Notes under the pieces: model-generated
Database searches by the model: none
What the model saw: the letters and a program-made list of their open reading frames with translations, nothing else
What the model was told of the DNA's origin: nothing
Assembly (NCBI GenBank): GCA_900234795.1
Contig: LT962688.1
Location: 4,680,001 to 4,712,000, forward strand
Direction of reading: 5' to 3'
Length of the DNA: 32,000 nucleotides
Origin: Methylorubrum extorquens
GTDB taxonomy: Bacteria; Pseudomonadota; Alphaproteobacteria; Rhizobiales; Beijerinckiaceae
Shown here: one piece after another, positions 4,517 through 19,541 of the stretch
How positions within the stretch are numbered: the stretch's first letter is position 1
How the letters are laid out: each line of letters begins with the position of its first letter
Position numbers and translations under genes: made by a program

Positions 4517-6271
4517 GTGTCCCAGCCTACCCTCACGTCCGCGCCCGAGCACCGCCATGGCCGGCTCGTCCGCGTGTCGAGCGTCGGTCTTGCCTCGGTT
4601 CTGGCGATCTTGATCGGCACCTCGGTGCTTCCGCCTCTCGTGGCGGACCAATCCGATCGCGCGGTGGTCAACGCCCCGGTCACCCTGCTGACGGCCCCGA
4701 TCGCGGGCGATATCGGGGCGATCCCGGTCACCGCGGGGGACAAGGTCGAACGCGGTTCGCTGGTGGCCCAGATCACCAATGACCGCCTGGATCGCGCCAC
4801 GGCGATCCAGCTAGCCGGGCGTGTCTCCGAACTGCGGGAGCGCGCGCTTGCCGCCGAGAACAAGAGAACCTCGAACGAGGCCTATCTTGCGGCCATCGAT
4901 CGGGCGATCCGGGATCAGTCCGCACAGATGATGCAAGTCCTCCGCTCACAGGTCGAGGAACTCAAAGCCAAAATCGCCTCGGCCAACGCGTCGGGCGAGG
5001 AGAAGCGGGTGCTGATGGAGCGTCAGGTCGGCATGGTCGCGCGCGACGTGGCGAGCCCCGATATGGTGAAGTCGACGACGCAAGCCTTCAACGCCGCGAT
5101 CCAGGAGAAGAAGGCGGCGGAAGCCAAGCTCAATCAGAAGACGGTTCAGCTCGAGGGACTGGCTCGTGGGCTGTTCCTGGGCGACGAACTGCGCAGCCTC
5201 GCCGACCTGTCGGAGAAGCAACTCTCCATCACCTACGACACCCAGCGCCTTGCAATCGAGGAGAAGGAGCTGAAGGCCGCGATGGTCGATCAGCAGGCGC
5301 TGCTGAAGCGGGAGGACCAGCGCCTCGACAGGTTGACGACCTCCGAAATCAAGGCTTCGGCCAAGGGCGTCGTCTACAACGTCAACGCCACGACCGGACG
5401 CCACGTCGGAGCCGGCGACAGCCTCGCCTCCGTCGTGGATTGCGAGCGCAGCTTCGTCGTCGCCATCTTCTCCTACCGCCAGGGCCAGAACCTGCAGGTA
5501 GGAAGCGCGGTCACGATTTCGGGCGGATCCGTCGGGCCTCGCAAAGGCATCGTGACCGAGATTCTGCCCAAGACCAGCGACACCGTCGACGCGACCTACG
5601 CGGTGCCGTTCCCGCAGACGGAGCGGCGCGAGCTCTACGTCTTGGTCAGGCCCGAGCCGCTCCCGGCCAGCGGTGCGGCGTCCGAAACCCTGGTGGAGTC
5701 GGCTTGTGGCGTCGGACGCTGGGTGACGGTCACGCGGGAATCGGGCTGGGTGCCGTCGAACTCCGTCGTCTGGCGCGATCTCGGTGACGGCGCGAGCGGG
5801 CTCGTGACGAAGGTCGCGGCCGCCGCACCCGATGTCGTGCAAACCGTGTCCGATCACGCCCGGGCCATGGTCTCCTCCGCCAGCGACGTCCTGAAACACG
5901 TCGTCTCCACGGGTGCGGATGTCGCTGGCCCGGCACGGGCCGGCCACGACGTCCCCGTGCGGCCGGAACCCGGAACGCCTCGGGCGAGCTCAGCCGTTGG
6001 TGAGGGCCGTTCCGAGACGCAGTCGGAGGCGATCGCGCCCGCTATCCAGAGAGACGCGCCGACCATCGCGTCCACGGAGTCCGGGGAGAAGCCTGTGGTC
6101 GATCGCATGGCCCCGATCCTGACCCAGCCCTCGAGCACGGGGCAGCAGCCGGCCGAGATCGCCCCTGCGCGCCGCATCTCGATGCCGCCGCTCCCGCCGG
6201 CACGGCCGAATTCTTTCCAAAGCGAGGCTCCGAAACGGACAGGTTCCATCGCACAGGAGGCACGCAGCTGA
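4517..6271 (+). CDS. HlyD-family membrane-fusion (periplasmic adaptor) protein with a long Pro/Ala/Ser-rich C-terminal tail; BgsB-like partner of a glucan synthase
   Basis: GTG 4517 with GGAG at 4504-4507. N-terminal TM segment (VGLASVLAILIGTSVLPPLV), lipoyl-like hairpin (APIAGDIGAIPVTAGDKVERGSLVAQI), long coiled-coil, beta-barrel part (GVVYNVNATTGRHVGAGDSLASVVD). The last ~170 aa are low complexity. Confidence 0.8.
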   Translation: MSQPTLTSAPEHRHGRLVRVSSVGLASVLAILIGTSVLPPLVADQSDRAVVNAPVTLLTAPIAGDIGAIPVTAGDKVERGSLVAQITNDRLDRATAIQLAGRVSELRERALAAENKRTSNEAYLAAIDRAIRDQSAQMMQVLRSQVEELKAKIASANASGEEKRVLMERQVGMVARDVASPDMVKSTTQAFNAAIQEKKAAEAKLNQKTVQLEGLARGLFLGDELRSLADLSEKQLSITYDTQRLAIEEKELKAAMVDQQALLKREDQRLDRLTTSEIKASAKGVVYNVNATTGRHVGAGDSLASVVDCERSFVVAIFSYRQGQNLQVGSAVTISGGSVGPRKGIVTEILPKTSDTVDATYAVPFPQTERRELYVLVRPEPLPASGAASETLVESACGVGRWVTVTRESGWVPSNSVVWRDLGDGASGLVTKVAAAAPDVVQTVSDHARAMVSSASDVLKHVVSTGADVAGPARAGHDVPVRPEPGTPRASSAVGEGRSETQSEAIAPAIQRDAPTIASTESGEKPVVDRMAPILTQPSSTGQQPAEIAPARRISMPPLPPARPNSFQSEAPKRTGSIAQEARS

Positions 6272-7482
6272 GGGCGGCCGCCGCCGCGCTCGCTCTCACG
6301 TTGGGAATGTCGGCCCCTGCCTGGGCGGATGATCTCGGCCGGGAGCTGTGCCGCGCCCTGTCCGGCGCCGTCGAGAGGACGGCGCCCGATGGGGACCCCG
6401 TGTTCCTCGCGAGCTACGAGCCTGGGCCGGACGAGAAGGAGGTTCCGCCGCCGCTGCGCAGCACCGCCTTCTCCTACGACAACGCCCTGGCGGCCACGGC
6501 GCTCGCGGCCTGCGGCGACCTGCGGCGCGCCCGTCAGATCGGCGAGGCTTTCCTCGTGGCGATCGAGAGCGACCGCACCTTCGAGGACGGTCGCATCCGC
6601 AATGCCTATCGCGCCGGCCCGGTGCGCGCGCGTCCCGTCCTCCTCCCGGGCTGGTGGGACGCCGCGAACAAGCGCTGGTCCGAGGACCGCTATCAGGACG
6701 GCACGGCGACCGGCAACGTCGCGTGGGTCGGGCTGGCACTGCTCAATCTGCGCGACGCGACGCAGGACCCGCGTTTCGAGAAAGGGGCCACCCGTCTCGC
6801 GGCCTGGATCCGAGCGCGGACGGCCCGCCACAACGGGCCCGGCTTCACCGGAGGGCTCGACGGCTACGATCCCGACCAAGCGTCGCTGAGCTGGGCCTCC
6901 ACCGAGCACAACCTCGACATCGTTGCCCTGGGGATGCGGCTCGGCAAGCCCGACGACCGGGCCATGGCTGCCTCGGCACGGACATTCCTCGACGCCGCCT
7001 TCGACGAACGGGCCGGCTGCTTCCGGATGGGAACCGATACCGAGGGACATATGCGCGGTGTCGAGGCCATCGCCCTCGACACGCAGCTCTGGCCCCTGCT
7101 CGGGGTCGTCGATCCGCCGGACGCTTGGCGGCGCGCGCTGTCCTGCGCGACCACACGGTTGGGCGTGCCCGGCGGGTTCGATTTCAACGACGACCGCGAC
7201 GGCCTTTGGGTCGAGGGGACCGCACAGGCGGCGCTCGCTTATCGCTCCGTCCAGAACGAGGCCACGGCAGGCGAACTTCTGCAGACTCTGGCCGGTCAGC
7301 GCGCGCCCTCGGGCTGGCTCTATGCGAGCCGCGAAGCACGGCTGACCACCGGTCTGCGAATCGGGCCGGCGAGCACGCAGGACGATTTCTTCTACTTCCG
7401 CCGTCCGCATCTTGGCGCGACGGCTTGGGCCGCGCTGGCAGCTTTGGGCCACAATCCCTTCACAGGAGGCCGCGTCCAATGA
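6268..7482 (+). CDS. secreted helical-repeat protein, possibly (alpha/alpha)6-barrel glycan-processing enzyme; start codon uncertain (CTG 6268, TTG 6301 or ATG 6307)
   Basis: The frame is open from 6004. AGGAGG at 6255-6260 lies 7 nt before CTG 6268. Translation from there gives a Sec signal, (M)RAAAAALALTLGMSAPAWA/DD. The body has repeats such as FSYDNALAATALAACGDLRRARQIGEAFL and TGNVAWVGLALLNL. The stop overlaps the GT2 start (ATGA). Confidence 0.6.
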   Translation: MRAAAAALALTLGMSAPAWADDLGRELCRALSGAVERTAPDGDPVFLASYEPGPDEKEVPPPLRSTAFSYDNALAATALAACGDLRRARQIGEAFLVAIESDRTFEDGRIRNAYRAGPVRARPVLLPGWWDAANKRWSEDRYQDGTATGNVAWVGLALLNLRDATQDPRFEKGATRLAAWIRARTARHNGPGFTGGLDGYDPDQASLSWASTEHNLDIVALGMRLGKPDDRAMAASARTFLDAAFDERAGCFRMGTDTEGHMRGVEAIALDTQLWPLLGVVDPPDAWRRALSCATTRLGVPGGFDFNDDRDGLWVEGTAQAALAYRSVQNEATAGELLQTLAGQRAPSGWLYASREARLTTGLRIGPASTQDDFFYFRRPHLGATAWAALAALGHNPFTGGRVQ

Positions 7483-9437
7483 TGTTTCCCTCGCCCGGCG
7501 ACGCGGCCTCCGTGCTCGCGCTCTCGTTCGGCATCGCGCTCGGGCTTTTCGCTCTCGCGGGCCTGTTGCGGCCGGAGCGCGCCTTCGATCGCCTTCTGTT
7601 CGGAGCGCTGACGGCCGCGCTCATCGCTACCTACGCGCGCTGGCGCTGGAGCGACACGCTGCCGCCGCTGACCCCCGAGGCCGGTGCCCTCTGGTCCTAC
7701 CTGTTCTTCGCCGCCGAGATGGTGGCGGTGGTCTATACCCTGCTCTCGGTGATCATCCTGCTGCGCTTCAAGGACCGGTCAACGGAGGCCGACGCGGCCC
7801 AGGCTCGCCGCGAGGCGAGTGGCGAATGGCCGGCCGTCGACATCTTCATCTGCACCTACAACGAGCCGCGCGAGGTTGTGGAGAAGTCGATCCTGCCATC
7901 GCTCGCCATCGATTACGAACCCAAGACCGTCTGGGTCTGCGACGACACCCGTCGCGATTGGCTGCGCGACTATTGCGAGGAGGTCGGCGCCCGCTACATC
8001 ACGCGCCCGGACAACAAGGGGGCCAAGGCCGGCAACCTCAACAACGCCCTGCGTCACACCGCTGAGCGGACCGACGCCCCCCTTATTCTCGTGCTCGATG
8101 CGGATTTCGCGCCGCAGCCGAACATCCTCAAGCGCATGGTCGGCCTGTTCGATGATCCGAAGACGGGCGTGGTGCAGTCGCCGCAATTCTTCTTCAATGC
8201 CGATCCGATCCAGCACAATCTCGCCGCCTCCGATAGCTGGGTCGATGACCAGCGCATCTTCTTCGACGTGTTCCAGCCGGCAAAGGACGCCTGGAACGCG
8301 GCCTTCTGTGTCGGCACCTCGTTCATCGTGCGCCGCGACCGGCTCGGCGAGATCGGTGGCTTCCCGGATGCCGCGATCTGCGAGGATCTCAATCTGTCGC
8401 TCGGCATGTCACGCCGAGGCTACGAGACTCACTGGCTGAACGAGCGGCTAAGCATGGGCCTCTCGGCTGAAGGCCTCCCGGAATACATCACGCAGCGTAC
8501 CCGCTGGTGTCTCGGAACGATTCAGATCGCGTTGCTCGCCGACGGGCCGCTTCGCGGGCCGGGCTATACCCTGGTCCAGCGGATCCACTTCCTGCATGGT
8601 GTGCTGAACTGGGCCTGCAAACCTTACATCGTGCTGATGCTGCTGGCCCCGGCGGTCTACTGGATCGCCGGGCTGCCGGCCTTCGAGGCCGACGTGCTGT
8701 CCTTCCTGCGATACGGTGCGCCCCCGCTCTTCGCTCTGTGGGCCTATAGCGGCTGGGTTTCGCGCTCGCGCACGCTGCCGATCTTCATGGAGGTGACCCA
8801 CGCGATCAGTGCGCTCGCCGTCACCATGACGCTCATCCAAGCCGCCGTCCGACCCTTCGGCCGTCCGTTCAAAGTCACGGAAAAGGGGGGTGATCGCTCC
8901 CAGATGCGCGTCCGCTGGCGCATGGCCTCGGCCTTCGGCGGCCTCTCCCTGCTTTCGGCCTTCAGCATCGTCTGGGCCTTCATCGCCCCGACCGCTCCGG
9001 CCGAGATCTCGGATATCGACTACTTCAACCTCGTCTGGGCCGGAGTGGCGATGGTGCTGACCTTCATCTGCTTCCTCGTCTGTTTCGAATACCCGCGCGT
9101 CGATCTCGCATTCCGCTACGACGCCGACGCCCGGATCGAAGCCGGCGGGACCAGCCACGCCTGCCGCATCGCGACCCTTTCGCCCGGCCAGGCGACCCTC
9201 GCCGAGGCGGGGGAGCCGGTCTCCGCGGTGGGTGCGCCGCTCATCCTGCACCTTCCGGGCATCGGCGCGATCGACGCGGTTGCGGACTCCGCCGGCCTTT
9301 CACTCGATCCGACCCCGGAGCAGTACCGGGCTCTGGTCGTGGCCCTCTACTCCACCCCGCGCGATACCATCGCCCGGGCCGCCCGGTTCACACCGGCCGT
9401 TGGTGGCCTGCTCCGCCGGAGCCTGGGCCTCGGCTGA
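7479..9437 (+). CDS. GT2-family processive beta-glucan synthase (cellulose/curdlan/mixed-linkage-glucan synthase-like) with a C-terminal PilZ-like region
   Basis: AGGAGG at 7464-7469; ATG 7479 overlaps the upstream stop. Motifs: VWVCDD, LDADF (DxD), ICED (TED equivalent), QRTRW (QxxRW). Several TM segments lie on either side of the catalytic domain. 652 aa. The upstream part of ORF 6348..9437 is a spurious extension. Confidence 0.9.
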   Translation: MMFPSPGDAASVLALSFGIALGLFALAGLLRPERAFDRLLFGALTAALIATYARWRWSDTLPPLTPEAGALWSYLFFAAEMVAVVYTLLSVIILLRFKDRSTEADAAQARREASGEWPAVDIFICTYNEPREVVEKSILPSLAIDYEPKTVWVCDDTRRDWLRDYCEEVGARYITRPDNKGAKAGNLNNALRHTAERTDAPLILVLDADFAPQPNILKRMVGLFDDPKTGVVQSPQFFFNADPIQHNLAASDSWVDDQRIFFDVFQPAKDAWNAAFCVGTSFIVRRDRLGEIGGFPDAAICEDLNLSLGMSRRGYETHWLNERLSMGLSAEGLPEYITQRTRWCLGTIQIALLADGPLRGPGYTLVQRIHFLHGVLNWACKPYIVLMLLAPAVYWIAGLPAFEADVLSFLRYGAPPLFALWAYSGWVSRSRTLPIFMEVTHAISALAVTMTLIQAAVRPFGRPFKVTEKGGDRSQMRVRWRMASAFGGLSLLSAFSIVWAFIAPTAPAEISDIDYFNLVWAGVAMVLTFICFLVCFEYPRVDLAFRYDADARIEAGGTSHACRIATLSPGQATLAEAGEPVSAVGAPLILHLPGIGAIDAVADSAGLSLDPTPEQYRALVVALYSTPRDTIARAARFTPAVGGLLRRSLGLG

Positions 9438-9575
9438 GCGGCGCCGCGGGCGAAGCGCATCGGCGGATACTCTTGAACGCATTCCGACCGAGTGGCGGCC
9501 GGTGCGTCCGCAAGAACCCGCGGCAAGACAAGCATTTAGAGAAGCCGGCCTGAGGCAATCCGGCCGGATACGGCT

Positions 9576-12500
9576 CTAGGTGTGGTGATACATGTCGTGC
9601 ACCGGATGCGTCTGATCCGTGACCCCGATCAGGCCGACCGTGTGATGGGTCGTTGCCTCGTCCGGCCCGTGTGGAAGGGCCGATGGCGCCGGATCCTGAG
9701 GGGCGTCCGCGTGGAACACGAGATTGCCGTCCGCGTCGATCACCGCGGGCGGCGGGCTTGGCCGGCCCGGCTTCGCTTGACCGGACGCCCCCTGGGACGC
9801 CGCGGAGCCGGATTGGCCGTTTGGCAAAGGCCCGCCCGCCAGATCGGCTTCGACCTGTACAGGCGGCTGGGTCGGCTCGTTGGCCTTGACCGGAGGGGCC
9901 GCCTGTCCGGGCGCCTCCCGGTCGGTGCGGCCGCTGACCGAAAGGACGTCATCGACCTGTCCTCGATCGGGATGGGCCGGTGCGATCGCCTCCTGCGCAG
10001 CCGGTGCAGACGGCGACGTCAGGTCAGGACCACCGGACGGGCCGGACAGGTCATTCTCGTCCACGCCGTGAACTGTCGCCTGCGGGTCCGCCACTGGGAT
10101 CGCGCGAACGACGACGGGTCCCGCGCTGTCATGCGGTCCGTCAGGATCGGCTTGGGCGTGCTCACCCTTCGGCGACGCAATCTGAGCGTCCGACGCCGGT
10201 GAAGCGCCGTGTCCGAGGGGGTTTTCCGCCTCCGCCCGATCGCTTCCCCGATCCTGCAAGACTGGATCGTGGGCAGCCGACGCGGGAACGGCAGGCTCCG
10301 CATCGGCACTTTGCCCGTGCGGCGCCGACTCTTCCTGCGCAGGCCATGCCTGGGGCCCGGCGCCGCCGGCATGGACGTTCGATGGCGACGTCACGGCGAC
10401 GTCGCTTGGCGTGGATCCGTGCTCCTTCGTGCCGAACACGTCCCCGTTCGTCTGCTCCGAGGCTGCCGCGTTCGCGGCCTGATCGGAGCCATGCTCGATC
10501 GAATGACCCCGTGCGGGTTCGGAGGGCGACGATGTCAGATCCTGACCAGGTCCATCCGCCGCCGCGGGCGCCCGATCGGCCTTGGCTGCAGGCCCGGGAG
10601 CCGCTCCGTCGGTCGGATCGTGCGCGCCGCCCGGCAGCTCGGTCGCGCTGAGCGTTTTCGATCCGTGGAGAGCGGGATCGGGGTCGAGCAACGCATGAGC
10701 CTTCGGGGTCGGTGCCGCGTCGGATCGCGTTTCGCCGGGAGTTTCTGGCTTACCGTGACTTGAAGCCGTGTCGCTCGCGCCGGGACCATGCGCTTCGGGC
10801 GCTTGCTGGTCGTTCCGCTCGGCCGGAACCGAGTTTTGACTCTGGCCGCGATCGGCCTGCTGCTCAGTCGCGGGAAGAACGGCTTCGGCCTGCGCGGCCG
10901 ATCCCCGCTCGTTGGCATCGCTTGGGGCCCGGCCGTGGCCGGCGGTCGGCGCGTCTGAACCCGGCTCATGGTGCGCGACAACCTCGGCCTTCGAGTTGCT
11001 GCCATGACCCTGGCCGTTGTTGCTGCCCGTCGGCTCGATCTGCGGATCGTTTCCAGACGCCGCCTCGGTCGGCCGCTGCGAACCTTGATCGTTGGCATTC
11101 TCCTGGCCGCTGGCGCGACCAACCTGTTGACCCGCGGGAGGATCGCCGATCACGGCCTCGGCCCGTGTGCTTCCCGGGCCAGAGACGCCGGCATGGCCTT
11201 CACTCGGGCCGGTCTGCACGATCGGCGGGTTCTGTGCCACCGCAGTCTCGGCCTGCGGGCCCCGGTCCTGAGCAACGGCGCTCGCGTTGCCGTTACCACG
11301 GCCGGTCTGCTCGACCGGTGGGCCGTTCCTCGTCTCGGCCTGAGCCGGCACGGTTTCTTCCCGAGCGAAAACGCTGGATTGGTCATGGCCGCGGCCGGTC
11401 TGCGCGCTTGGCGGATTACTTCCCGTCGCAGGCTCAGCGTGCGGGCCCCGCTCCTGAGCAGCGACACCGGCATTGCCACGGCTGCTCGACTCGACCGGTG
11501 GGCTATTCGCCGCTTCAGCCTGAGCCGGCGAGGCGTGTTCCCGAGCGACAACACTGGATTGGTCATGGCCGCGGCCGGGCTGCGCGGTCTGCGGATTACT
11601 TCCCGTCGCAGGCTCAGCCTGCGGGCCCCGGTCCTGAGCAACGGCGCTCGTGTTGCCGTTGTCACGGCCGGTCTGCTCGACCTGTGGGCTATTCGCAGCT
11701 TCGGCCTGAGCCGGCACGGCGTCTTGCCCAGCGACAACGCTGGATTGGTCCTGGCCGCGGCCGGTCTGCGCGCTCGGCGGATTACTTCCCGTCGCAGGCT
11801 CAGCCTGCGGGCCCCGCTCCTGAGCAACGGCACCGGCATTGCCACGGCTGCTCGACTCGACCGGTGGGCTATTCGCAGCTTCAGCCTGAGCCGGCGCGGC
11901 GCTTTCCCGAGCGCCGCCGCTGGCGTGGCCATTGCCACCGCCGGCCGGCACGGTCTGCGGGTTGTTCCCGCTCGCCCCCTCAGGCGATGAAGCGCGGTCC
12001 GGACCGACGGTGTTCACGTGGCCGTTCGTGGGGCTCGTTGGCTCGGCCCGCATTTCATGAGAGGCCGCAGCCGGCGCGCCCTGATCCTGGCCTTGGGCGC
12101 TGGCTTGGCCCTGGCCGGGTCCAACCTGCTCGGCCTTCGGGCTGTGTCCGACGGCCGCCATCGCCGGCGAGCCGCGATCCTGACCGGTGCTTTCGATGAA
12201 ACTTTGACCGGGGCGGGCCTGCCCGGCCTGCGAAGTGTTCCCGGTCGCGGTTTCAACCTGCGCGCTCTGGGTCGCCGCAACGCTGGTGGGGTGCCTGTCA
12301 CTGTCGGCGCCACGCTCGGCCTGCGGACTATTCCCGGTCGCTGTATCCGTCTGAACGCCTCGGCCTCGACCGATGCCCTCGGGCTGGCTGTGACCGGGGG
12401 CGGCCTGTTCTCCTGTCGGATGGGTCTCGGCTCCAGCCTTGGCCGGGGATTCTCGATCCCGGCCCACGCCCTCGACGTGACCGTTGGCAAGCCCCGCCGG

Positions 12501-13802
12501 ATCGACCTTCGCACTGTCCTCGAGCGCAGCCTTTGCGGGTCGGCCGCCGCCCCGATCGTCGGCATCCCGCGAGGCTTCGGGGGCCGGTATCCGGTTCGTC
12601 GCAGTCTGGGTTACGGCATTGCCCCAGGCCGGTCGGGCAGGTCCGCTTCCGGCGTCAGCCGAGTCAGACGATGGGGCAGGTGCAGGACGGGCGCGGGAGC
12701 CGGGTTCGGCGATCGAGGCCAATGCCGAACCGGCATGCTGATCAGTTGAGTTTGACCCCGGCTCGTCCGATGTGGGCGCCGCACTCTCGCTGCGACCCGA
12801 CGTCGACGCCTGTTGGCCGCTGGATTTGGCGGCGGACGCCTCGGCCGATGTGCTGGCTAGCGCGACGTCGCTGCCAAATCTCGGCGCCAGCGGCTGGTTC
12901 TGCGAGGCTGGTGACTTCGGCGCTTCAGCCGGGGATTCGGTCCGCGCCACAGGAGCCGGATCGACCCGGCTCGCCGCTGTAATCGTGTCGGAAGCCGGGT
13001 GAGGACGAGCATCGGGATTCGCGCCGCTGCCCTGCGCCGTCAGAACGGCCGGCTGAGCCGACACGCTCCCGCGGCCGGAGCCGAACGCGGTGCCCGACGC
13101 CGGCGCCGCTTCACCCTGCGCGGTTAGGATCGAGGCGTTGCTCGCCCCGTCCGCGAAGTCGAGATTCAGCTCCGCGCTCACGGCGCGGTGATCGATCGCC
13201 ATGGCCTCGGCTGCGAAGATCATCGCGGAGAGGATGATGGCCTCGAGCTGCTTGCGATCGGTGTCCCGATCACCGGACCCGCCATTGGCCTTCGGCTGCG
13301 GATGGCCCGGCGCGGGCCCGCCACCCTGGGAGGCGGGCGGCGGAGATACGCCTTCGCCGTCCGCCACGAGCGAACCGGCATGGGCATCCTCTGAGGACAG
13401 GCTCAAGGCTGCCGCCGCCACCAGGGCCGCGAGCAGCGCGGCCGGATGAACCACGAGCGTCGTCCCCGTCGCTGTCGCCGGGATCGGAAGCAGGTGCGGA
13501 TGCAGTTGGGCGATCTGGTCGATCAGGGTCCGGAAATCCGTGCCGCGCACGGGCCGATCCAGAGCGTCCGAGGCGATGAGATAGCTGCCGTCGATTTTGG
13601 CGAAATGAATGATCGCGTCGCCGTCCGGTTGGCAGAAGACGAACCACGGCTCACCCTCGTCGCTGAGGCCGTGCTCGCTCGCGATGCTGAACCCGGCACG
13701 GAGGAGAGCCGCCTCGACGCGATAGAACTCGGCCAGCTCCTGCTGCGACCAGTTGCCTTGCCGCGCCGATGCCGGACGGAAGAAGGGAATGACCGTGCTC
13801 AT
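9576..13802 (-). CDS. giant low-complexity repeat protein (about 1408 aa) with a ~110-aa ordered N-terminal domain; unknown function, last gene of the T1SS cluster
   Basis: Single ORF 9576..13853. The best start is ATG 13802 (GGTGAG 6 nt upstream); alternatives are ATG 13808 and GTG 13853. N-terminus STVIPFFRPASARQGNWSQQELAEFYRVEAALLRAGF..., then a hydrophobic stretch LVVHPAALLAALVAAAALSL. The remaining >1200 aa are rich in A/P/G/S/Q/E with internal repeats. The tail is His-rich (HHTVGLIGVTDQTHPVHDMYHHT). Confidence 0.8.
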   Translation of the reverse strand: MSTVIPFFRPASARQGNWSQQELAEFYRVEAALLRAGFSIASEHGLSDEGEPWFVFCQPDGDAIIHFAKIDGSYLIASDALDRPVRGTDFRTLIDQIAQLHPHLLPIPATATGTTLVVHPAALLAALVAAAALSLSSEDAHAGSLVADGEGVSPPPASQGGGPAPGHPQPKANGGSGDRDTDRKQLEAIILSAMIFAAEAMAIDHRAVSAELNLDFADGASNASILTAQGEAAPASGTAFGSGRGSVSAQPAVLTAQGSGANPDARPHPASDTITAASRVDPAPVARTESPAEAPKSPASQNQPLAPRFGSDVALASTSAEASAAKSSGQQASTSGRSESAAPTSDEPGSNSTDQHAGSALASIAEPGSRARPAPAPSSDSADAGSGPARPAWGNAVTQTATNRIPAPEASRDADDRGGGRPAKAALEDSAKVDPAGLANGHVEGVGRDRESPAKAGAETHPTGEQAAPGHSQPEGIGRGRGVQTDTATGNSPQAERGADSDRHPTSVAATQSAQVETATGNTSQAGQARPGQSFIESTGQDRGSPAMAAVGHSPKAEQVGPGQGQASAQGQDQGAPAAASHEMRAEPTSPTNGHVNTVGPDRASSPEGASGNNPQTVPAGGGNGHASGGARESAAPAQAEAANSPPVESSSRGNAGAVAQERGPQAEPATGSNPPSAQTGRGQDQSSVVAGQDAVPAQAEAANSPQVEQTGRDNGNTSAVAQDRGPQAEPATGSNPQTAQPGRGHDQSSVVAREHASPAQAEAANSPPVESSSRGNAGVAAQERGPHAEPATGSNPPSAQTGRGHDQSSVFAREETVPAQAETRNGPPVEQTGRGNGNASAVAQDRGPQAETAVAQNPPIVQTGPSEGHAGVSGPGSTRAEAVIGDPPAGQQVGRASGQENANDQGSQRPTEAASGNDPQIEPTGSNNGQGHGSNSKAEVVAHHEPGSDAPTAGHGRAPSDANERGSAAQAEAVLPATEQQADRGQSQNSVPAERNDQQAPEAHGPGASDTASSHGKPETPGETRSDAAPTPKAHALLDPDPALHGSKTLSATELPGGAHDPTDGAAPGPAAKADRAPAAADGPGQDLTSSPSEPARGHSIEHGSDQAANAAASEQTNGDVFGTKEHGSTPSDVAVTSPSNVHAGGAGPQAWPAQEESAPHGQSADAEPAVPASAAHDPVLQDRGSDRAEAENPLGHGASPASDAQIASPKGEHAQADPDGPHDSAGPVVVRAIPVADPQATVHGVDENDLSGPSGGPDLTSPSAPAAQEAIAPAHPDRGQVDDVLSVSGRTDREAPGQAAPPVKANEPTQPPVQVEADLAGGPLPNGQSGSAASQGASGQAKPGRPSPPPAVIDADGNLVFHADAPQDPAPSALPHGPDEATTHHTVGLIGVTDQTHPVHDMYHHT
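11162..11891 (-). repeat. in-frame tandem repeat, four units of alternating 180 and 186 bp, inside the giant ORF
   Basis: On the minus strand, units start at 11891, 11711, 11525 and 11345, each beginning AQAE(A/T).... Peptide units alternate between type A (AQAEAANSPPVESSSRGNAG..) and type B (AQAEAANSPQVEQTGRDNGNTSAV..). The plus-strand landmark GC(C/G)TGCGGGCCCCG recurs at 11251, 11437, 11617 and 11803. Confidence 0.85.
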
Positions 13803-13880
13803 CGTCATCTCACCGTGTCGGCTCGTGGCGACCCTTGGCGGAGAGCGCCGCACCCCATGGCGGAGCGACCGGGTGCAGCG

Positions 13881-15263
13881 CTAGCGTTCATGGAAGGCGC
13901 GTCCCATCGCGTCGAAGAAGGGCGCGAACAGATATTCCAGGGCCGTGCGCTCCCCGGCCGAGACCACCACCTCGGCTGGCAAGCCCGCGAGAAGGCGATG
14001 TCGGACCTCGGCGGGAAGCTGGTGTTCGTCGATCTCCACGGTGCCGGCGAAATAGGCCTGCTTCGACCCCTCGTCGACCAGACGGTCCCGCGACACCACC
14101 GTGAGCGTTCCGAAGACTGCGGGCGTACGGCGAGCCTGAAAGGTCGGAAACTTGATCTCCGCCCGCATGCCGGCATGGACGGCCTCAAGGTCGTTGGGCG
14201 AGAATTGCACGTTGACCACGAGCCTGTCCGCCGTCGGGACGATCTCCATCAGCGGCTCGCCCGAGCGGACGACCTGCCCGATCGCGAAAACCTTGAGCCC
14301 CTGGATGACGCCGTCGTGGGAGGCGCGGATCTCGTGCCGCCGGAACACGTCCTGCGCGACGACGAGCTTTTCCCGGAGTTCGCCGATCCTCTGCCGCGTC
14401 TCGAGAAGTTGGCCGGTGACCGCCTCCTGAAGCTTCTGCTTCAACTGGGTGACCTGCAGCCCGGCCTCGCTGATGGCGTTCTCGGCTTTTGCTCTTTCCG
14501 CGACGGAGCGCCCGATCACACCCTCCAGTCGCGTGCGCTCCCGCTCCATCACGAGGAGGCGCGACAGCGGGATCAGATTTCGCTCGTGCAGGCTGCGCAG
14601 GCCCTCCAGTTCCTGTCGGATGAAGCCGACCTGCTGCTCGACCGAGGACTTCTCGACCGCAAGGCCGGAGATCTCCGTCCGCAGCTGGGTGACTTTGGCC
14701 TCGATGAGGGCGAGTTGGCCCTTCAGCGTCGTCCTCCGTTCGGCCAACTGACCCGCCTGGTCGCCGATCATGCGTGCGAGGACGGGCTCGTTGCGCCGTG
14801 CGGCGATGTCGGCGGGCAGTTGCAGGTCGTCGGACTGCGCCTGCTCCGCCCGCAGCCGCGCCTCCAGGACAAGAGCGGCGTCGAGCTGGTTTCGGAACAG
14901 GTCCGCACTCGCCTGGGACTGTAGGGGATCGATGCGCAGAAGGACGTCGCCGGAGCGAACCGTCTGCCCGTCCTTCACCAGCACCGCCTGGACCATGCCG
15001 CCCTCGAAGTGTTGGACGACCTTGCGGCTGGTTTCCGCGACGATGACGCCGGTGCTGATGACGGCGCGATCCAGGCGGACGGTGGCCGCCCAGGCACCGG
15101 CGACGCCGAAGGCCGCGGCGATGAGCGCATAGCCGCCGATCGCGTAACGCTGCCACGCGATCGACGGGACGGCGCTGTCCTCGGCACCCGTTCCGCCTCG
15201 GCCCAGCGACGACGAGGAAGCGGCGGAAGACGTGATCGGGATCGGGGCAGGAGGCATTGTCAT
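13881..15263 (-). CDS. type I secretion system membrane-fusion protein (HlyD/PrtE/AprE family)
   Basis: 460 aa. TM segment YALIAAAFGVAGAWAA; VVQHFEGGMVQAVLVKDGQTVRSGDVLLRID hairpin; long coiled-coil; C-terminal beta-barrel ending ...ERTALEYLFAPFFDAMGRAF. The start is 3 nt after the ABC stop. Confidence 0.9.
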   Translation of the reverse strand: MTMPPAPIPITSSAASSSSLGRGGTGAEDSAVPSIAWQRYAIGGYALIAAAFGVAGAWAATVRLDRAVISTGVIVAETSRKVVQHFEGGMVQAVLVKDGQTVRSGDVLLRIDPLQSQASADLFRNQLDAALVLEARLRAEQAQSDDLQLPADIAARRNEPVLARMIGDQAGQLAERRTTLKGQLALIEAKVTQLRTEISGLAVEKSSVEQQVGFIRQELEGLRSLHERNLIPLSRLLVMERERTRLEGVIGRSVAERAKAENAISEAGLQVTQLKQKLQEAVTGQLLETRQRIGELREKLVVAQDVFRRHEIRASHDGVIQGLKVFAIGQVVRSGEPLMEIVPTADRLVVNVQFSPNDLEAVHAGMRAEIKFPTFQARRTPAVFGTLTVVSRDRLVDEGSKQAYFAGTVEIDEHQLPAEVRHRLLAGLPAEVVVSAGERTALEYLFAPFFDAMGRAFHER

Positions 15264-15266
15264 GGC

Positions 15267-17030
15267 TCAGCCCGCGCTACGTTGGATTTCGGACAGCCTC
15301 TCGTTCTCGGGCATCGCGCGACCGCCGGTCGCGACCAGCGCCGGAACCGGGCGCGGCCCGGAAACCTGGGTGAGGATCTGATCCGCCGGGCCCGAAGCGC
15401 GGAGCGTTCCGCCCTCCAGCATCAGGATCTGATCGGCGCCCGCCAGCAGGCTCACCTTGTGCGTGACGATCACAACCGTCGTCCCCCGCTCTCGAAGGTC
15501 CGCCACCGCCCGCATCAGCGCGGCCTCGCCGGCTTGGTCGAGGCTGGCATTCGGCTCGTCGAGGACGACCAAGCTCGGGTCCCCGTACATCGCCCGCGCC
15601 AGGGCGATGCGCTGACGCTGGCCGCCGGAGAGGCCGTGCCCGCCCGATCCGATCCGGGTGTTGTAGCCGTCCGGCAGAGCCTGGATCAGGTCGTGGCAGC
15701 CCGCGCGTTGCGCCACCGAGACGATGGCGGCGTCGTCCTGGGTGTCGAAGCGCGCGATGTTCTGCGCCACCGTGCCGTCGAACAATTCAACGTCCTGCGG
15801 CAGGTATCCGAGATGCCGGCCGAGCGCCTGCGGGTCCCAGTGCCGGAGGTCGGCTCCGTCGATGCGCACCGCGCCGGAGGTGATGGGCCAGACGCCGGTG
15901 ATCGCGCGGACCAGGGTCGATTTCCCGGCCGCACTCGGACCGATGATGCCGACGACGCTGCCGGGCTCCAGCCGCACGCTGACATCGTGGAGAATGGCCG
16001 TCGGCGAGCCCGGCGCCGCCACGACCAAATTCTCGGTCTCGATCAGACCGCGCGGACGCGGCAGCATCACGCGCTGCGGTTCGAGGCCGATGCGCCCCAC
16101 GATGTCCGCCAGCCGGGCATAGCTGCGCCGGGCCGCCGTGAAGCTCTTCCAATGCCCGACGACCGCCTCGATGGGCGCGAGCGTCCGGCCCATGATGATG
16201 GAAGCCGCGATCATCGAGCCGGCAGAGATCTCGCCATGGATGGCGAGGTAGGCGCCGACACCGAGGACCATCGTCTGCAGGAACATGCGCGTGAACTTCG
16301 TCGCCGCGGTGATGAGGCCGGCGCGATCGCTCGCCCGGGCCTGCAGCCGAATCGCCTCGTCGTGACGCCGACGCCACCGGGACCGCAAGGCGCCGAGCAT
16401 GCCCATGGCGCGCAGAACCTCGCCCCCTCGCATGGTCGCGCGGGCCTGCTCGCCCGCTTCTCGGGCCGCTTGGCTCGCCACGTCGAGGGGCCGCCGGGTC
16501 GTGAGATCGGTCAGGAGCGTGAGCCCCAGGAGCGTGCCGCCCCCGAGCAACGCCATCCAGCCGAACCACGGATGGAGGATGAAGCAGGCCATCAGGAACA
16601 GCGAGGCCCAGGGCAGGTCGCAGAGCGCCAGGATCGCGCCGCCCGTGAGGAACTCACGCAGGACATCGACATCGCGAAGGATCGTTTCGTGCCCGGCGCG
16701 CGGCTTGAGCAATGCGGCCCTGTGAACGATCTCGAAGACTGGTCCGGCAACCTTTCGATCGAAGATCATCCCGCCCCGCACCAACAGGCGCGAACGAAGC
16801 ATTTCGAGGACGGCATAGACGGCGAGCGCGAAGGCCGCGATGCCCGTGATGCCGAGGAGCGTCGCCTCGTTCCGGCTCGAGAGGACGCGATCGTAGACCT
16901 GCAGCATATACAGGGGACCGGCGAACAGAAGCAGGTTCGTGAAGAAGGCGAAGACGAACACCGTCATCAGAACGGGGCGGATCGCCCGCAGCCCATCCTT
17001 CAAGACGGACTCGGCCACACGATCGCTCAT
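15267..17030 (-). CDS. type I secretion system ABC transporter (permease + ATPase), PrtD/AprD/HasD type without an N-terminal C39 peptidase domain
   Basis: 587 aa. The N-terminal half has 6 TM segments and starts directly with FFTNLLLFAGPLYMLQVYDRVL. Walker A GPSAAGKST, signature LSGGQRQR, Walker B LVVLDEP. RBS GGGAGG lies before ATG 17030. Confidence 0.9.
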   Translation of the reverse strand: MSDRVAESVLKDGLRAIRPVLMTVFVFAFFTNLLLFAGPLYMLQVYDRVLSSRNEATLLGITGIAAFALAVYAVLEMLRSRLLVRGGMIFDRKVAGPVFEIVHRAALLKPRAGHETILRDVDVLREFLTGGAILALCDLPWASLFLMACFILHPWFGWMALLGGGTLLGLTLLTDLTTRRPLDVASQAAREAGEQARATMRGGEVLRAMGMLGALRSRWRRRHDEAIRLQARASDRAGLITAATKFTRMFLQTMVLGVGAYLAIHGEISAGSMIAASIIMGRTLAPIEAVVGHWKSFTAARRSYARLADIVGRIGLEPQRVMLPRPRGLIETENLVVAAPGSPTAILHDVSVRLEPGSVVGIIGPSAAGKSTLVRAITGVWPITSGAVRIDGADLRHWDPQALGRHLGYLPQDVELFDGTVAQNIARFDTQDDAAIVSVAQRAGCHDLIQALPDGYNTRIGSGGHGLSGGQRQRIALARAMYGDPSLVVLDEPNASLDQAGEAALMRAVADLRERGTTVVIVTHKVSLLAGADQILMLEGGTLRASGPADQILTQVSGPRPVPALVATGGRAMPENERLSEIQRSAG

Positions 17031-17434
17031 GGCACCTCCCGGCGCGCCGGTTCACGTGGCCCGGATCGCGCGGCCAAGCAGTCCGCCTGCGAATGCCGGC
17101 CACAGAGCGCCATCCCTCGGAACAGGAAGGGGAGCTTCGAGGCCGTCGGCCGGGATTCATTCCCGGAAAAATGTGACTTGTGCCGCCGCATCGCGTCCGC
17201 TTCCCCGGCTCGCGTCATCGCGTGCCGGCTTATGAATCTTAGCGCAGGCTTATTGTATTCCAAGGAGCGCCGCCGAGACCGTCGAAAATCGGACGCAATG
17301 CCAACTGGACATCGGCTGTCTGAGCGCCATATGGAAATCACTGTACCATTCGGCGCTCTCGCAATTGAGCGCTGGCGGGAGCCGCACATTTGTATGTCCA
17401 TCAGCAACGTCTCGGCTCTGAGGAGGTGCAGGAA

Positions 17435-17686
17435 TTGCGCCGCGAAGGTGGCCGCTTCCTGAAGGACCTTCGCGAGAAGCAGGGTCTCTCACAGAGACAG
17501 TTGGCTGCCCTGGTCGGTGCCGAGTACTACACCTTCATCTCACAGCTTGAGACGGGCCGCGGCCGAGTGCCCCCGGACCGGTACCGGCTCTGGGCCGATG
17601 CCCTGGGAGTGGATGCGAAAGACTTTGTGAAGAGCCTGATGCGCTTCTACGATCCGCTGACGTTCGAGATCCTCTTCGGCGACTGA
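17435..17686 (+). CDS. XRE-family helix-turn-helix transcriptional regulator
   Basis: HTH segment LREKQGLSQRQLAALVGAEYYTFISQLETGRGRVP. AGGAGG at 17421-17426 lies 8 nt before in-frame TTG 17435 (the ORF track begins at TTG 17390). Divergent from the T1SS operon. Confidence 0.75.
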   Translation: MRREGGRFLKDLREKQGLSQRQLAALVGAEYYTFISQLETGRGRVPPDRYRLWADALGVDAKDFVKSLMRFYDPLTFEILFGD

Positions 17687-17747
17687 CCCGTCGTCGATAC
17701 AGGCTCGACTCTTGCCGTAGAACGCGCGGGAAGCTGGCTGTCTGCGC

Positions 17748-17963
17748 CTATTCCGCCGCGAGGCTGAGCGTCTCCGCTTCGACAAGGACGGCGCCACAGG
17801 CTGTCATCAGGTCGCGCAGCATCGCCAGAGCGGTTTGCACTTCCGCCGGCGTCGACAAGCCCTCGCGGAAATGCGTGCCACCACCGGCCAACGTCACTGC
17901 GATGTCGAACCGTCCGTCAGGGCGTTCGAGGATCCGATACGACGCGCGGCGAGGCATGGGCAC
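17748..17963 (-). CDS. small hypothetical protein (69-71 aa), paralogue of 19046..19279
   Basis: About 40% identity over ~54 aa with the product of 19046..19279 (YRILERPDGRFDIAV...GL.T.AE...LRDLMTACGAVL versus YRVVDCPDGRFAVVV...GL.TLAE...LRAILAHCGAAL). GC3 about 76%. No good SD sequence. Confidence 0.5.
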   Translation of the reverse strand: MPMPRRASYRILERPDGRFDIAVTLAGGGTHFREGLSTPAEVQTALAMLRDLMTACGAVLVEAETLSLAAE

Positions 17964-18171
17964 GAGGGAGAGCGATGGCTGGAAGCGTGAAGACCAGCCC
18001 TGTCATGCGTCGCCCGTTCGTGCAGTTCAAGCTATGGACTTCGCTGTATCCAGCCGCTCCAAACGAGGCGTGGACAGCCGCAATGTGAGACAGAGCCCGA
18101 ATCCGCACTGATCGCGGACGACGTCATCCGGCGCTCGAAGCAGATTTGGGCCAATCGGAGAAAGATGAAGT

Positions 18172-18885
18172 TCAGGCCGGCACCTTGGTGGAAGGCGTGC
18201 TCAGCCGCTCCATCAAGTAGGAGCGAGCACGGCTTACCCGGCTCTTCACCGTACCGGTCTGGCAGCCCATGACCTCCGCGGCCGCTTCGTAAGTCAGGCC
18301 CTGCGCACCGACGAGAAGCAGCGCTTCGCGTTGGGGGGCCGGTAGCCGCGCGATGTAGGACAGGACGACCTGAAGGTCCGAGCCATGCTCCTGTGCCGCC
18401 AGCGCAACCAGTTGGCCCGCCATGACACCGTCCACGTCCTCCACCTCACGCCTGTGCTTGCGTCGCTCGGTGTAAAAGTGATTGCGGAGGATGGTGAACA
18501 GCCACGCTTTCAGATTCGTGCCTGGCACGAACCGATCCTGATTGGCCCACGCTTTCAGCACGGCCTCCTGCACGAGATCGTCGGCCCGTGCAGCACTTCC
18601 AGCGAGCGACTGCGCGAACACCTGCAGCGCCGGAAGTGCTGCCGTGAGCCCCGCGCGAAAGGCTGCGTCGCGCTCACTCGCCAGGGGCGCGAGAGCACTC
18701 TCCAGAACCCGCGTGAGATCAAGCAAATGCTGCGGCGCACCTGAAACGACGATTTCGAGATAAGTCGCCTGCAACTGAGCTCCGATGTGCTTCTGCACCG
18801 CGAAGGGCAGCCGGGCAGCTCCCGCTTTCCCTTCCGGATCCGAGCAAACCGGACCGAGTCCGCTTGCAATCAGCATGTCGATCAA
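18172..18885 (-). CDS. ECF (group IV) sigma-70 factor with an N-terminal NepR-like anti-sigma motif fused in frame
   Basis: Region 2 is DDLVQEAVLKAWANQDRFVPGTNLKAWLFTILRNHFYTERRKHRRE. The region 4 HTH is LPAPQREALLLVGAQGLTYEAAAEVMGCQTGTVKSRVSRAR. The N-terminal extension contains IGAQLQATYLEIVVSGAPQHLLDLTRVLE. Start is TTG 18885 (AAGGA 7 nt upstream) or ATG 18876. The longer ORF to 19194 is antisense to the paralogue gene and low complexity. Confidence 0.8.
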   Translation of the reverse strand: MIDMLIASGLGPVCSDPEGKAGAARLPFAVQKHIGAQLQATYLEIVVSGAPQHLLDLTRVLESALAPLASERDAAFRAGLTAALPALQVFAQSLAGSAARADDLVQEAVLKAWANQDRFVPGTNLKAWLFTILRNHFYTERRKHRREVEDVDGVMAGQLVALAAQEHGSDLQVVLSYIARLPAPQREALLLVGAQGLTYEAAAEVMGCQTGTVKSRVSRARSYLMERLSTPSTKVPA

Positions 18886-19045
18886 CCCACGTTCCTTCTC
18901 GGAGCGAGCGGCTGAGAGATGCCTGAGCCAGCTCCTCCCGCCGTACAGTGAACATCTAACTCGCGAACCTCGGGGATCGATCCATTCCGTCGGCGCGTTC
19001 GGGGTTGCGCTCGGAGTAGCGTTGAGAGCTTGCACGGTCGAAGTG

Positions 19046-19279
19046 ATGACATGCCCGGTGACGTATCGAGTCGTTGACTGTCCGGATGGTCGGTTCGCGG
19101 TCGTCGTCGTGGCTGCATCGGGTGCTGCGTACTGGCGCAACGGATTGCTCACGCTCGCAGAGGCAGAGGCTTGCGTCGAGGATCTCCGCGCCATCCTGGC
19201 GCACTGCGGCGCGGCGCTCGCGTGCTACGACAATACGCAAGACATTCAAACGGAGCGCTGGCCGCGCTCGCTGAGGTAG
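19046..19279 (+). CDS. small hypothetical protein (77 aa), paralogue of 17748..17963
   Basis: ATG 19046 within ORF 18785..19279. The product MTCPVTYRVVDCPDGRFAVVVVAASGAAYWRNGLLTLAEAEACVEDLRAILAHCGAAL... aligns with the 17748..17963 product. Divergent from the ECF sigma gene. Confidence 0.5.
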   Translation: MTCPVTYRVVDCPDGRFAVVVVAASGAAYWRNGLLTLAEAEACVEDLRAILAHCGAALACYDNTQDIQTERWPRSLR

Positions 19280-19541
19280 GTGGCCTGCGCGGGGGCTGCA
19301 ATTTCCTCGTAAGTGCACTGAGTAGCCTGCTTCAGCCGTGGACAGCCGCACGTCAGCCGGAAGAGCCCATTCTCGGCATGGAGCAGAAGCGGACAGAGGT
19401 GGCATAAGGTGTCCTTGGGCCGAAGTAGGCCTCGTAGCTCTCCGGCGACGGGCCAGGTTTCAGCCGGTTGCTTCCCCTGCCGCGATGGAGAAACTTGGCG
19501 GAGAAATTTGGCCCGGACCGTGCCTCACCTCAGATCACCGC

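Follow-up and report, generated by a model that had tools for sequence, protein, structure and literature searches.

What is the role of a giant, largely disordered protein that is encoded directly behind the pump genes of a type I secretion system (T1SS) and carries no GGxGxD repeat? The question arises from a 32,000-nucleotide stretch of Methylorubrum extorquens DNA (contig LT962688.1, positions 4,680,001 to 4,712,000; hereafter the window), in which the genes for a PrtD-type ATP-binding cassette (ABC) transporter, an HlyD-type periplasmic adaptor (membrane fusion protein, MFP) and a giant open reading frame (ORF) of 1408 aa follow each other co-oriented on the minus strand. The window has a G+C content of about 68%, and is most closely related to Methylorubrum extorquens and Methylobacteriaceae genomes. 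Judged by its sequence, the giant protein belongs to an unnamed alphaproteobacterial family, which includes CCNA_01057 of Caulobacter, and represents the form expanded in Methylobacterium. The reading we favour, with a probability of about 0.45, is that it acts as a membrane-anchored partner, probably an antagonist, of a small XRE-family regulator encoded nearby, with a long acidic arm that would form the input side and would probably be engaged by the adjacent pump. All feature coordinates are collected in Table 1.

An unnamed family and its conserved partner gene

The giant ORF is open over 9576..13853 on the minus strand, with the ATG at 13802 (MSTVIPFF) as the probable start according to the annotated homologues and the local sequence. 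It is regarded as a real gene because the frame is uninterrupted in over 40 Methylobacterium/Methylorubrum genomes, both of its ends being conserved and its middle part variable; its 81 homologues of 775-1471 aa, the best of which is 99% identical, are without exception annotated as 'hypothetical'. The G+C content at third codon positions is 0.74, compared to 0.85-0.87 in the ABC and MFP genes. Alanine, proline, glycine, serine, glutamine, glutamate and threonine account for 68% of the protein and for 72% of its centre, less than the >85% estimated in a preliminary description of this DNA, which had rightly noted that GGxGxD repeats are missing (zero motifs in the giant protein, with PF00353 also unmatched). 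Searches against Pfam, NCBIfam and PADLOC gave no match to the protein.

A profile of the N-terminal 150 residues (alignment A1, with the window sequence as first row), searched against about 1.8 billion representative sequences, retrieved 1513 clusters at E <=0.001, among them 606 at E <=1e-30. A typical family member has 450-640 aa and consists of an N-terminal domain (NTD), two helices, a low-complexity linker and a small C-terminal domain. The NTD signature W-x-x-QELAEFYRVE ... EGEPWFVF ... HFARIDG, followed by the hydrophobic helix with the HPAALL motif, is present in the giant protein, residues 4-133 of which are 51% identical to the 498-aa CCNA_01057 (P0277; E 1e-36). The members are all named 'hypothetical protein', apart from one representative of a fusion subfamily from Rhodoblastus called 'beta strand repeat-containing protein'. 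Foldseek gave no match at E <=0.001, either for the NTD model in PDB and BFVD or for the complete Caulobacter model in PDB, and when profiles of the NTD and of the C-terminal domain were compared with PDB sequences, all matches were at chance level.

The NTD, which is about 50% identical between orders, and the XRE regulator are the most conserved parts of the system; the arm varies freely. The ordered N-terminal domain suspected in the preliminary description was recovered by AlphaFold2 (AF2) with a predicted local distance difference test score (pLDDT) of about 90 or above across residues 21-90; its column identity within the genus is 0.73-0.89, it contains the sole cysteine of the giant protein and it is predicted to be cytoplasmic. 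The two hydrophobic helices suspected at the same time are likewise present and conserved. Helix 1, a predicted transmembrane segment, exceeds a Kyte-Doolittle value of 1.6 in 97% of 316 family members, is flanked by basic residues on its N-side and acidic residues on its C-side, and is modelled by AF2 as a helix over residues 120-140. Helix 2, possibly a second transmembrane segment paired with helix 1 as a hairpin, has values above 1.2 in 96% of the members and above 1.6 in 51%, with a column identity of 0.71.

The arm has a net charge of about -63, a pI of 4.8, 9% hydrophobic residues, no cysteine and no hydrophobic peak above 0.76, and the Uversky charge-hydropathy boundary places it among disordered sequences, in line with the disorder ascribed to the low-complexity centre beforehand. 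In alignments, the arm is gappy and poorly conserved, its length and sequence differing strongly among species; across the family, arm length ranges from about 250 to 1150 aa. The 60-aa protein repeats, which begin at residues 638, 698, 760 and 820, are absent from most other species' homologues and therefore indicate a recent expansion of the disordered arm. The conserved ending of the protein has the genus-wide form IDxxGNLVF, Pro/His spacer, VGLIGVSD and His-rich tail over the last 58 residues, the last 60 residues of the giant protein containing 8 histidines, as the earlier mention of a His-rich tail implied. The canonical C-terminal domain of the family, a helix and four strands with the signature F-x-DGS-x-ISLVG, is retained in other Methylobacterium members (P0070-P0079); in CCNA_01057 it is modelled by AF2 with block-mean pLDDT of 74-97 over residues 411-498, whereas the linker is mostly low (block means of about 25-66). 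When the giant C-terminus was compared with this domain by hhalign, the last strand alone aligned (VGLIG/ISLVG; probability 9.6%, E 0.0033), so that by this one strand the giant C-terminus would represent a degenerate trace of the canonical domain.

A scan with one genome per species identified 241 family loci, all of them in Alphaproteobacteria except for a few metagenome-assembled genome (MAG) bins with discordant labels, in genera including Methylobacterium, Bradyrhizobium, Caulobacter, Phenylobacterium, Devosia, Xanthobacter, Rhodoblastus, Chelatococcus and Hyphomonas. With respect to labels, the protein P0063 from a MAG labelled Parafilimonas terrae (Bacteroidota) is close to M. radiotolerans-type proteins, with identical C-terminal 45 residues, and its label is probably due to bin contamination. 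The 80 best loci, 41 of the Methylobacterium type and 39 from other genera, were compared with the window proteins. Methylobacterium-type loci repeat the layout of the window, a divergent XRE gene followed by ABC, MFP and family gene and often an extracytoplasmic function (ECF) sigma factor gene nearby; the MFP gene is located directly upstream of the family gene in 35 of the 41. All 39 loci from other genera possess a homologue of the window XRE (57-78% identity), which in 37 of them precedes the family gene on the same strand by no more than 400 nt and in Rhodoblastus (L049) and a metagenome (L089) overlaps the start of the next gene by 4 nt with its stop codon. A PrtD/HlyD pair is found within 7 kb in 30 of these 39 loci in several arrangements, the window ABC transporter being 47-57% identical to the ABC proteins encoded next to family members in other genera. 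Compact modules are XRE-NTD-ABC-MFP in Bradyrhizobium and XRE-NTD-ABC-MFP-TolC in Phenylobacterium, and a TolC-family gene is also present in the Rhodoblastus locus. Thus, the tightest partner of the family is XRE and the pump is a strong second partner; the adjacency of homologues to prtD/prtE-like genes, the constancy of which had been put as a question in the preliminary description, holds for the majority of the loci in both groups but not for all.

At least 14 loci in Caulobacterales, Chelatococcus and Phenylobacterium carry a gene for a 1000-2166-aa protein with RTX motifs divergent from XRE, and a separate large RsaA/RTX-type gene is found at family loci in Caulobacterales, Chelatococcus, Phenylobacterium and Xanthobacter. 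On the other hand, an RTX-type ORF occurs neither within 7 kb in any Methylobacterium locus nor in the 32-kb window; a nearby RTX-type substrate outside the window had been named beforehand as the kind of finding that would speak against the giant protein as cargo. The family loci are rich in O-antigen and glycosyltransferase genes. As side observations on distribution, three species (M. nigriterrae, M. soli and M. planeticum; L045, L046 and L048) possess second family paralogues with the canonical C-terminal domain and without ABC/MFP genes within 7 kb, and in M. radiotolerans (CP001002, L002) the sigma-XRE-ABC-MFP-giant cluster is part of a 586-kb replicon and lies about 3 kb away from repABC-type replication genes; the module can therefore ride on a secondary replicon.

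The XRE gene had previously been considered a candidate local regulator starting at 17435. The conserved pairing of XRE and family gene strengthens this role, while the start is most likely TTG 17390, because the alignment with the Caulobacter orthologue runs from residue 1; the window protein is 70% identical to CCNA_01058 of C. vibrioides over the full length. In the window, XRE is divergent from the ABC gene, unlike its directly upstream position in other genera. Its nearest solved relative is the controller protein C.BclI of a restriction-modification system, and controller proteins of this kind bind palindromic operators. The DNA upstream of XRE contains a recurrent motif: in the 200 nt that precede XRE, 49 of 73 loci have its core CTGTAY versus about 5 expected, and 33 of 73 loci have its extended form versus 1.1 expected. 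Caulobacter has two copies, one facing XRE and the other facing rsaA. In the window, the promoter/operator-like element upstream of XRE may be a promoter or an operator for XRE. A pattern search for the core across the window gave three matches, one-mismatch sites included, versus 0.6 expected; two of the copies are exact, and the sole other exact copy (18943..18952) lies just upstream of the ECF sigma gene, which suggests shared control.

The ECF sigma gene adjoins the cluster in M. komagatae, M. radiotolerans and M. gregans, and its linkage is restricted to Methylobacterium. An anti-sigma reading, with the ECF sigma factor as the partner of the giant protein, was considered and set aside, as the sigma factor is linked only within Methylobacterium and XRE everywhere. 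Between the ECF sigma gene and XRE, Methylobacterium loci contain a 71-aa ORF without Pfam match (17748..17963 on the minus strand in the window), which is 75-96% identical in the closest relatives of the window, lower or undetected in more distant species, and has a diverged paralogue beyond the sigma gene as the C-terminal part of the ORF 18785..19279 on the plus strand; its product could be a sigma-associated small regulator.

Published transposon sequencing (Tn-seq) data exist for the Caulobacter member of the family. In C. vibrioides, the XRE-NTD pair is divergent from rsaA (RsaA_NTD, 1026 aa)-rsaD-rsaE, with CCNA_01055 annotated as GT1 glycosyltransferase, CCNA_01056 as methyltransferase, CCNA_01057 as 'hypothetical protein', CCNA_01058 as 'helix-turn-helix transcriptional regulator', CCNA_01059 as rsaA and CCNA_01060 as rsaD (supplements of PMC4241560 and PMC13001222). 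Upon challenge with phiCr30, a phage specific for the surface layer (S-layer), the ratio of insertions with phage to those without phage was 420 for CCNA_01057, 166 for rsaA, 93 for CCNA_01055, 79 for CCNA_01056, 9.1 for rsaD and 7.3 for rsaE, while insertions in the XRE gene CCNA_01058 had a ratio of 0.137, an approximately 7-fold depletion (Ardissone et al., 2014; PMC4241560). In a 2026 study by barcoded transposon sequencing (RB-TnSeq) with the phage Circe, which needs smooth lipopolysaccharide, XRE insertions had a fitness of +1.3 to +2.3 under challenge and of about +0.5 at the mildest condition, CCNA_01057 was at about -0.3 like rsaA, rsaD went down to -4.5, and CCNA_01055 and CCNA_01056 reached up to +4.8 and +3.3, respectively (PMC13001222). 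As the downstream O-antigen genes CCNA_01055/01056 themselves are strongly positive with Circe, insertions in CCNA_01057 are not simply polar on these two genes.

In our interpretation, which is not the authors' own, these values indicate that CCNA_01057 acts positively and XRE negatively on the S-layer, and that loss of CCNA_01057 resembles loss of the cargo RsaA and not loss of the pump. Insertions in XRE, located upstream in the same operon, do not confer resistance, which fits with XRE acting downstream of CCNA_01057. In the literature on rsaA regulation and on CC_1005/CC_1006, no mechanistic study of CCNA_01057 or CCNA_01058 was found.

Weighing the possible roles

On the basis of the family and its anatomy, of the linkage between the genes, of the conserved DNA motif and of Tn-seq phenotypes of opposite sign, we propose that the NTD would reside in the cytoplasm, tethered to the inner membrane by one or two hydrophobic helices, where it would physically bind and work together with the co-conserved XRE (17390..17686), most likely by antagonising it. 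XRE would control promoters of the T1SS locus, namely its own promoter, the promoter of the rsaA-type cargo in Caulobacter and possibly the ECF sigma promoter in the organism studied here. The unfolded acidic arm together with the C-terminal motif would be the input side, which the adjacent PrtD/HlyD pump most likely would engage, and this contact would tie the activity of the regulator to secretion.

That the arm is a T1SS client is plausible from a pump linkage that survives rearrangement, from an unfolded, acidic and cysteine-free arm and from a conserved element at the C-terminus. The strongest support for export of the arm comes from a fusion subfamily of nine clusters (P0352-P0359 and P0362) with the same N-terminal module, in which the NTD module is followed by a DUF4214-like segment, then by about 800 aa of beta-strand repeats and finally by an RsaA-like C-terminus that aligns with the C-termini of stand-alone RsaA-like proteins (hhalign E 3.5e-5, 66 of 75 columns). 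The one fusion locus examined (L089; P0353, 10001..13627) has the overlapping XRE, a divergent ABC/MFP pair and no other cargo gene. As T1SS substrates are recognised from the cytoplasm, the C-terminus of these fusions favours a two-helix hairpin with both ends of the protein in the cytoplasm. A further fusion of the NTD to an RTX/beta-helix protein, the metagenomic P0080 (L004, 571..3789), was set aside because it may be an assembly chimera: its N-terminal third shares 90% identity with the normal 589-aa member P0344, and the remainder shares 62-66% with the stand-alone proteins P0341-P0343.

Several observations weigh against this proposal. The hydrophobicity of helix 2 is merely marginal in half of the members, which makes the membrane topology ambiguous. 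Neither the canonical C-terminal domain (hhalign P 0.28) nor the giant C-terminus (P 0.073, with the last strand alone aligned) is detectably related to RsaA-like C-termini; no NCBIfam T1SS target domain was matched in the giant C-terminus or in the canonical domain, 32 examples of which were scanned, and the canonical domain is modelled with confidence as folded, in contrast to the unstructured signals of classical T1SS substrates. With respect to regulation, the NTD has no detectable relative among anti-sigma or anti-repressor folds in Pfam, NCBIfam and PDB, by fold or by sequence. In Methylobacterium, the giant gene occupies a position that is often taken by cargo genes, with no further cargo gene in the vicinity. 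The Tn-seq data were obtained in Caulobacter and not in the organism studied here, polarity within the 01058-01055 operon is incompletely controlled, and CCNA_01057 is called 'required for S-layer assembly' by the original authors, not a regulator.

Could the giant protein simply be the cargo of the pump, as the preliminary description had suggested as one option? The protein would then be an anchored or released T1SS substrate with the C-terminal motif as signal and the arm as passenger or surface 'brush', the NTD and the helices would serve as retention anchor or be secreted as well, and XRE would act only on transcription without binding to the protein. This reading, which we consider unlikely, draws on the order ABC-MFP-giant with its gaps of 3 and 78 nt, conserved in 35/41 Methylobacterium-type loci, on the lack of an RTX-type ORF in these loci and in the window, and on Bradyrhizobium sp. 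MOS002, in which XRE-NTD-ABC-MFP is found with no other cargo candidate nearby. The acidic, cysteine-free arm, predicted to be unfolded, with its conserved element at the extreme C-terminus would suit a passenger, and in the fusion subfamily the N-terminal module indeed carries an S-layer-like passenger with an RsaA-like C-terminus. Export via the C-terminal arm is thus a plausible part of this suggestion, yet as a full account it explains less of the evidence, since in Caulobacterales, Chelatococcus, Phenylobacterium and Xanthobacter a separate RsaA/RTX-type gene is available as cargo. Furthermore, the tightest linkage is with XRE and not with the pump, an NTD conserved at about 50% identity across orders next to an unconstrained passenger is an unusual pattern for a surface protein, no significant similarity to known T1SS C-terminal regions was found, and CCNA_01057 insertions behave like loss of rsaA with a sign opposite to that of XRE insertions.

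A pure transmembrane sensor that is not transported at all is equally doubtful in our view. Here, helix 1 would be the single span, the arm and the C-terminal domain would be periplasmic and would perceive the status of the O-antigen or S-layer, or a metal via the His-rich tail, and the NTD would control XRE in an anti-sigma-like manner. In favour of a sensor, the protein is laid out like an anti-sigma factor, with a domain in the cytoplasm, a membrane span and an outer part that varies, and its gene is co-transcribed with that of a small transcription factor. The charges on either side of helix 1 agree with an N-in, C-out orientation, half of the members have a helix 2 of weak hydrophobicity, and the compact fold of the canonical C-terminal domain resembles that of a sensor domain; O-antigen and glycosyltransferase genes abound at the loci. 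However, a sensor leaves the strong, rearrangement-resistant linkage to ABC/MFP genes unexplained, as well as the subfamily with the RsaA-like C-terminus, export of which must start in the cytoplasm, and a hydrophobic segment at helix 2 is kept in 96% of the members.

A specific version of the proposed coupling to the pump would be a T1SS-coupled switch, in which the NTD retains the XRE repressor at the inner membrane, or inactivates it there, only as long as the arm is drawn into the PrtD/HlyD/TolC channel or threads it. Cargo and pump genes would then be expressed in proportion to free secretion capacity, with the giant protein as an anchored decoy substrate following a FlgM/ExsE-like logic; fusions of the NTD to S-layer proteins would unite decoy and real cargo in one protein in some lineages, and the Methylobacterium arm of about 1150 residues would suffice to cross the entire envelope as far as the cell surface. 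In this detail, the scheme is speculative and, on balance, improbable.

A structural accessory subunit for pump assembly or cargo recognition, compatible with the operon shared with ABC and MFP in Methylobacterium, the membrane helices and the requirement of CCNA_01057 for phiCr30 sensitivity, is very improbable, as CCNA_01057 (420x with phiCr30; about -0.3 with Circe) behaves unlike rsaD/rsaE (7-9x; down to -4.5), the arm varies from about 250 to 1150 aa in length and, to our knowledge, the well-studied PrtD/HasD/RsaD systems need no such subunit.

Feature coordinates and neighbouring genes

The membership of the pump in the PrtD/RsaD class is supported by the alignment of residues 15-555 of the ABC protein to positions 2-543 of the TIGR01842 model and by matches to PF00664 and PF00005. 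With the HlyB and LssB models, in which N-terminal domains are included, the match is limited to the part from model position 138-141 on, and since the TIGR01842 alignment begins at residue 15, the protein is devoid of a C39/CLD extension, as stated beforehand. The operon-like layout proposed for the three genes also holds, with 3 nt between ABC and MFP and 78 nt between the MFP stop codon and the ATG at 13802. The 78-nt gap contains no terminator-like site; the GC-rich hairpin that spans the MFP stop codon is not significant compared to shuffled sequences (z -1.25). Over 9300..19300, a sigma-70 promoter scan showed no promoter-like site and a terminator scan gave 3 sites, fewer than the approximately 5 in shuffled sequence. 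As noted before, a TolC-like gene is missing, with no TolC/OEP family match among the scanned ORFs of the window; the TolC-family outer-membrane component of T1SS is often unlinked.

Table 1. Features of the giant gene, the secretion genes and the regulatory region in the window
Feature	Positions	Strand	Basis
Giant gene, 1408 aa and stop, Methylobacterium-expanded member of the CCNA_01057 family by sequence	9576..13802	-	homologue-based start
Conserved N-terminal domain (NTD), residues 17-112: helix, 5 strands, helix	13467..13754	-	AF2
Hydrophobic helix 1, residues 115-135, near-invariant HPAALL motif	13398..13460	-	Kyte-Doolittle 2.13
Hydrophobic helix 2, residues 184-203	13194..13253	-	Kyte-Doolittle 1.67
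Acidic low-complexity arm, predicted to be disordered, residues 204-1350 (~1150 aa)	9753..13193	-	composition, charge-hydropathy
Four tandem 180-nt (60-aa) repeats, residues ~638-880	11207..11913	-	TRF: period 180, 3.9 copies, 81% matches
Conserved C-terminal motif, residues 1351-1408: IDADGNLVF, Pro/His spacer, VGLIGVTD, His-rich tail	9579..9752	-	
PrtD/RsaD-type T1SS ABC transporter, 587 aa	15267..17030	-	TIGR01842 type_I_sec_PrtD 682 bits, cut-off 510
HlyD/RsaE-type T1SS periplasmic adaptor (MFP), 460 aa	13881..15263	-	TIGR01843 362 bits, cut-off 209
GC-rich hairpin, 12-bp stem, no T-run, spans MFP stop	13844..13885	-	fold of 13795-13890(-)
XRE-family helix-turn-helix protein, 98 aa	17390..17686	+	PF13560 and PF01381
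Promoter/operator-like element upstream of XRE: TGGACA, 17 nt, ATATGG, then ATCACTGTAC	17306..17346	+	read from sequence
Second exact copy of core TTCACTGTAC, upstream of ECF sigma gene	18943..18952	-	pattern search
ECF sigma factor, EcfG/PhyR-sigma-like, start uncertain	18172..18876	-	Sigma70_r2, Sigma70_r4_2, PhyR_sigma2

On the other side of the giant gene and convergent with it, the plus strand encodes a 584-aa HlyD-family protein (4517..6271) followed by a 1029-aa glycosyltransferase family 2 (GT2) cellulose-synthase-like protein (6348..9437; TIGR03030 328 bits, below cut-off). This adaptor and glucan-synthase pair presumably resembles the bgsBA genes for mixed-linkage glucan.

Comparison with known systems

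Among the systems to which the giant protein can be compared, RsaA-type S-layer proteins are encoded in the same kind of locus, and the fusion subfamily carries an RsaA-like C-terminus; unlike RsaA, the giant protein possesses neither RsaA_NTD nor RTX motifs nor a beta-strand repeat region. With the adhesins LapA and MpIBP it shares its size, the location beside T1SS genes and a folded N-terminal part that could prevent full release. Nevertheless, a LapA-type retention plug, as envisaged in the preliminary description, finds no support: there are no RTX or Ig-like repeats, there is no N-terminal homology, and no LapG/LapD-type genes (including BTLCP) are found among the scanned window ORFs. 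The candidate retention element of the giant protein would be its inner-membrane helices, while LapA and MpIBP are held by a plug in the outer-membrane channel.

By analogy only, flagellar FlgM and ExsE of type III secretion are regulator-binding proteins genetically tied to a secretion machine with an unfolded, export-compatible polypeptide. FlgM and ExsE are, however, small, soluble and fully exported by type III machines and not homologous to the giant protein, which we propose would be membrane-anchored, pulled by a type I system from its C-terminus and positive on cargo production in Caulobacter. Should the arm indeed be a T1SS client, it would be the first anchored regulator to be read out by a type I system. 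The anti-sigma factors RseA, RsiW and FecR resemble the family by a cytoplasmic N-terminal domain, a membrane span, a variable outer part, a co-transcribed partner and an opposite genetic sign. They differ in that the partner of the family is an XRE/controller-protein-like helix-turn-helix protein, in the lack of sequence or fold similarity and in the lack of a ZAS motif.

The closest comparison is the CCNA_01057/01058 locus of Caulobacter, with homologous NTD and helix 1, XRE and a nearby PrtD/HlyD-type pump in the same architecture. In gene order, the Caulobacter XRE-NTD pair is divergent from rsaA, whereas in the window XRE is divergent from ABC-MFP-giant and an RsaA-like gene is absent. 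The function of CCNA_01057/01058 is known from Tn-seq alone (PMC4241560, PMC13001222), and for CCNA_01057 a strong yet unexplained phenotype is thereby already on record in a model organism. An XRE regulator with a membrane partner and an upstream DNA motif beside T1SS pump and cargo genes represents a concrete and testable candidate control module, and although its mechanism is inferred, follow-up is worthwhile for an uncharacterised and widespread family of at least 1500 sequence clusters, which is without Pfam, NCBIfam or structural annotation and is located beside one of the best-studied bacterial surface layers. Compared to the 498-aa CCNA_01057 with its folded C-terminal domain, the giant protein has an approximately 4-5 times longer arm and what appears to be a degenerate C-terminal domain; the Methylorubrum protein is thus the extreme form of the family and offers a natural experiment on a disordered arm of about 1150 residues beside a T1SS pump.

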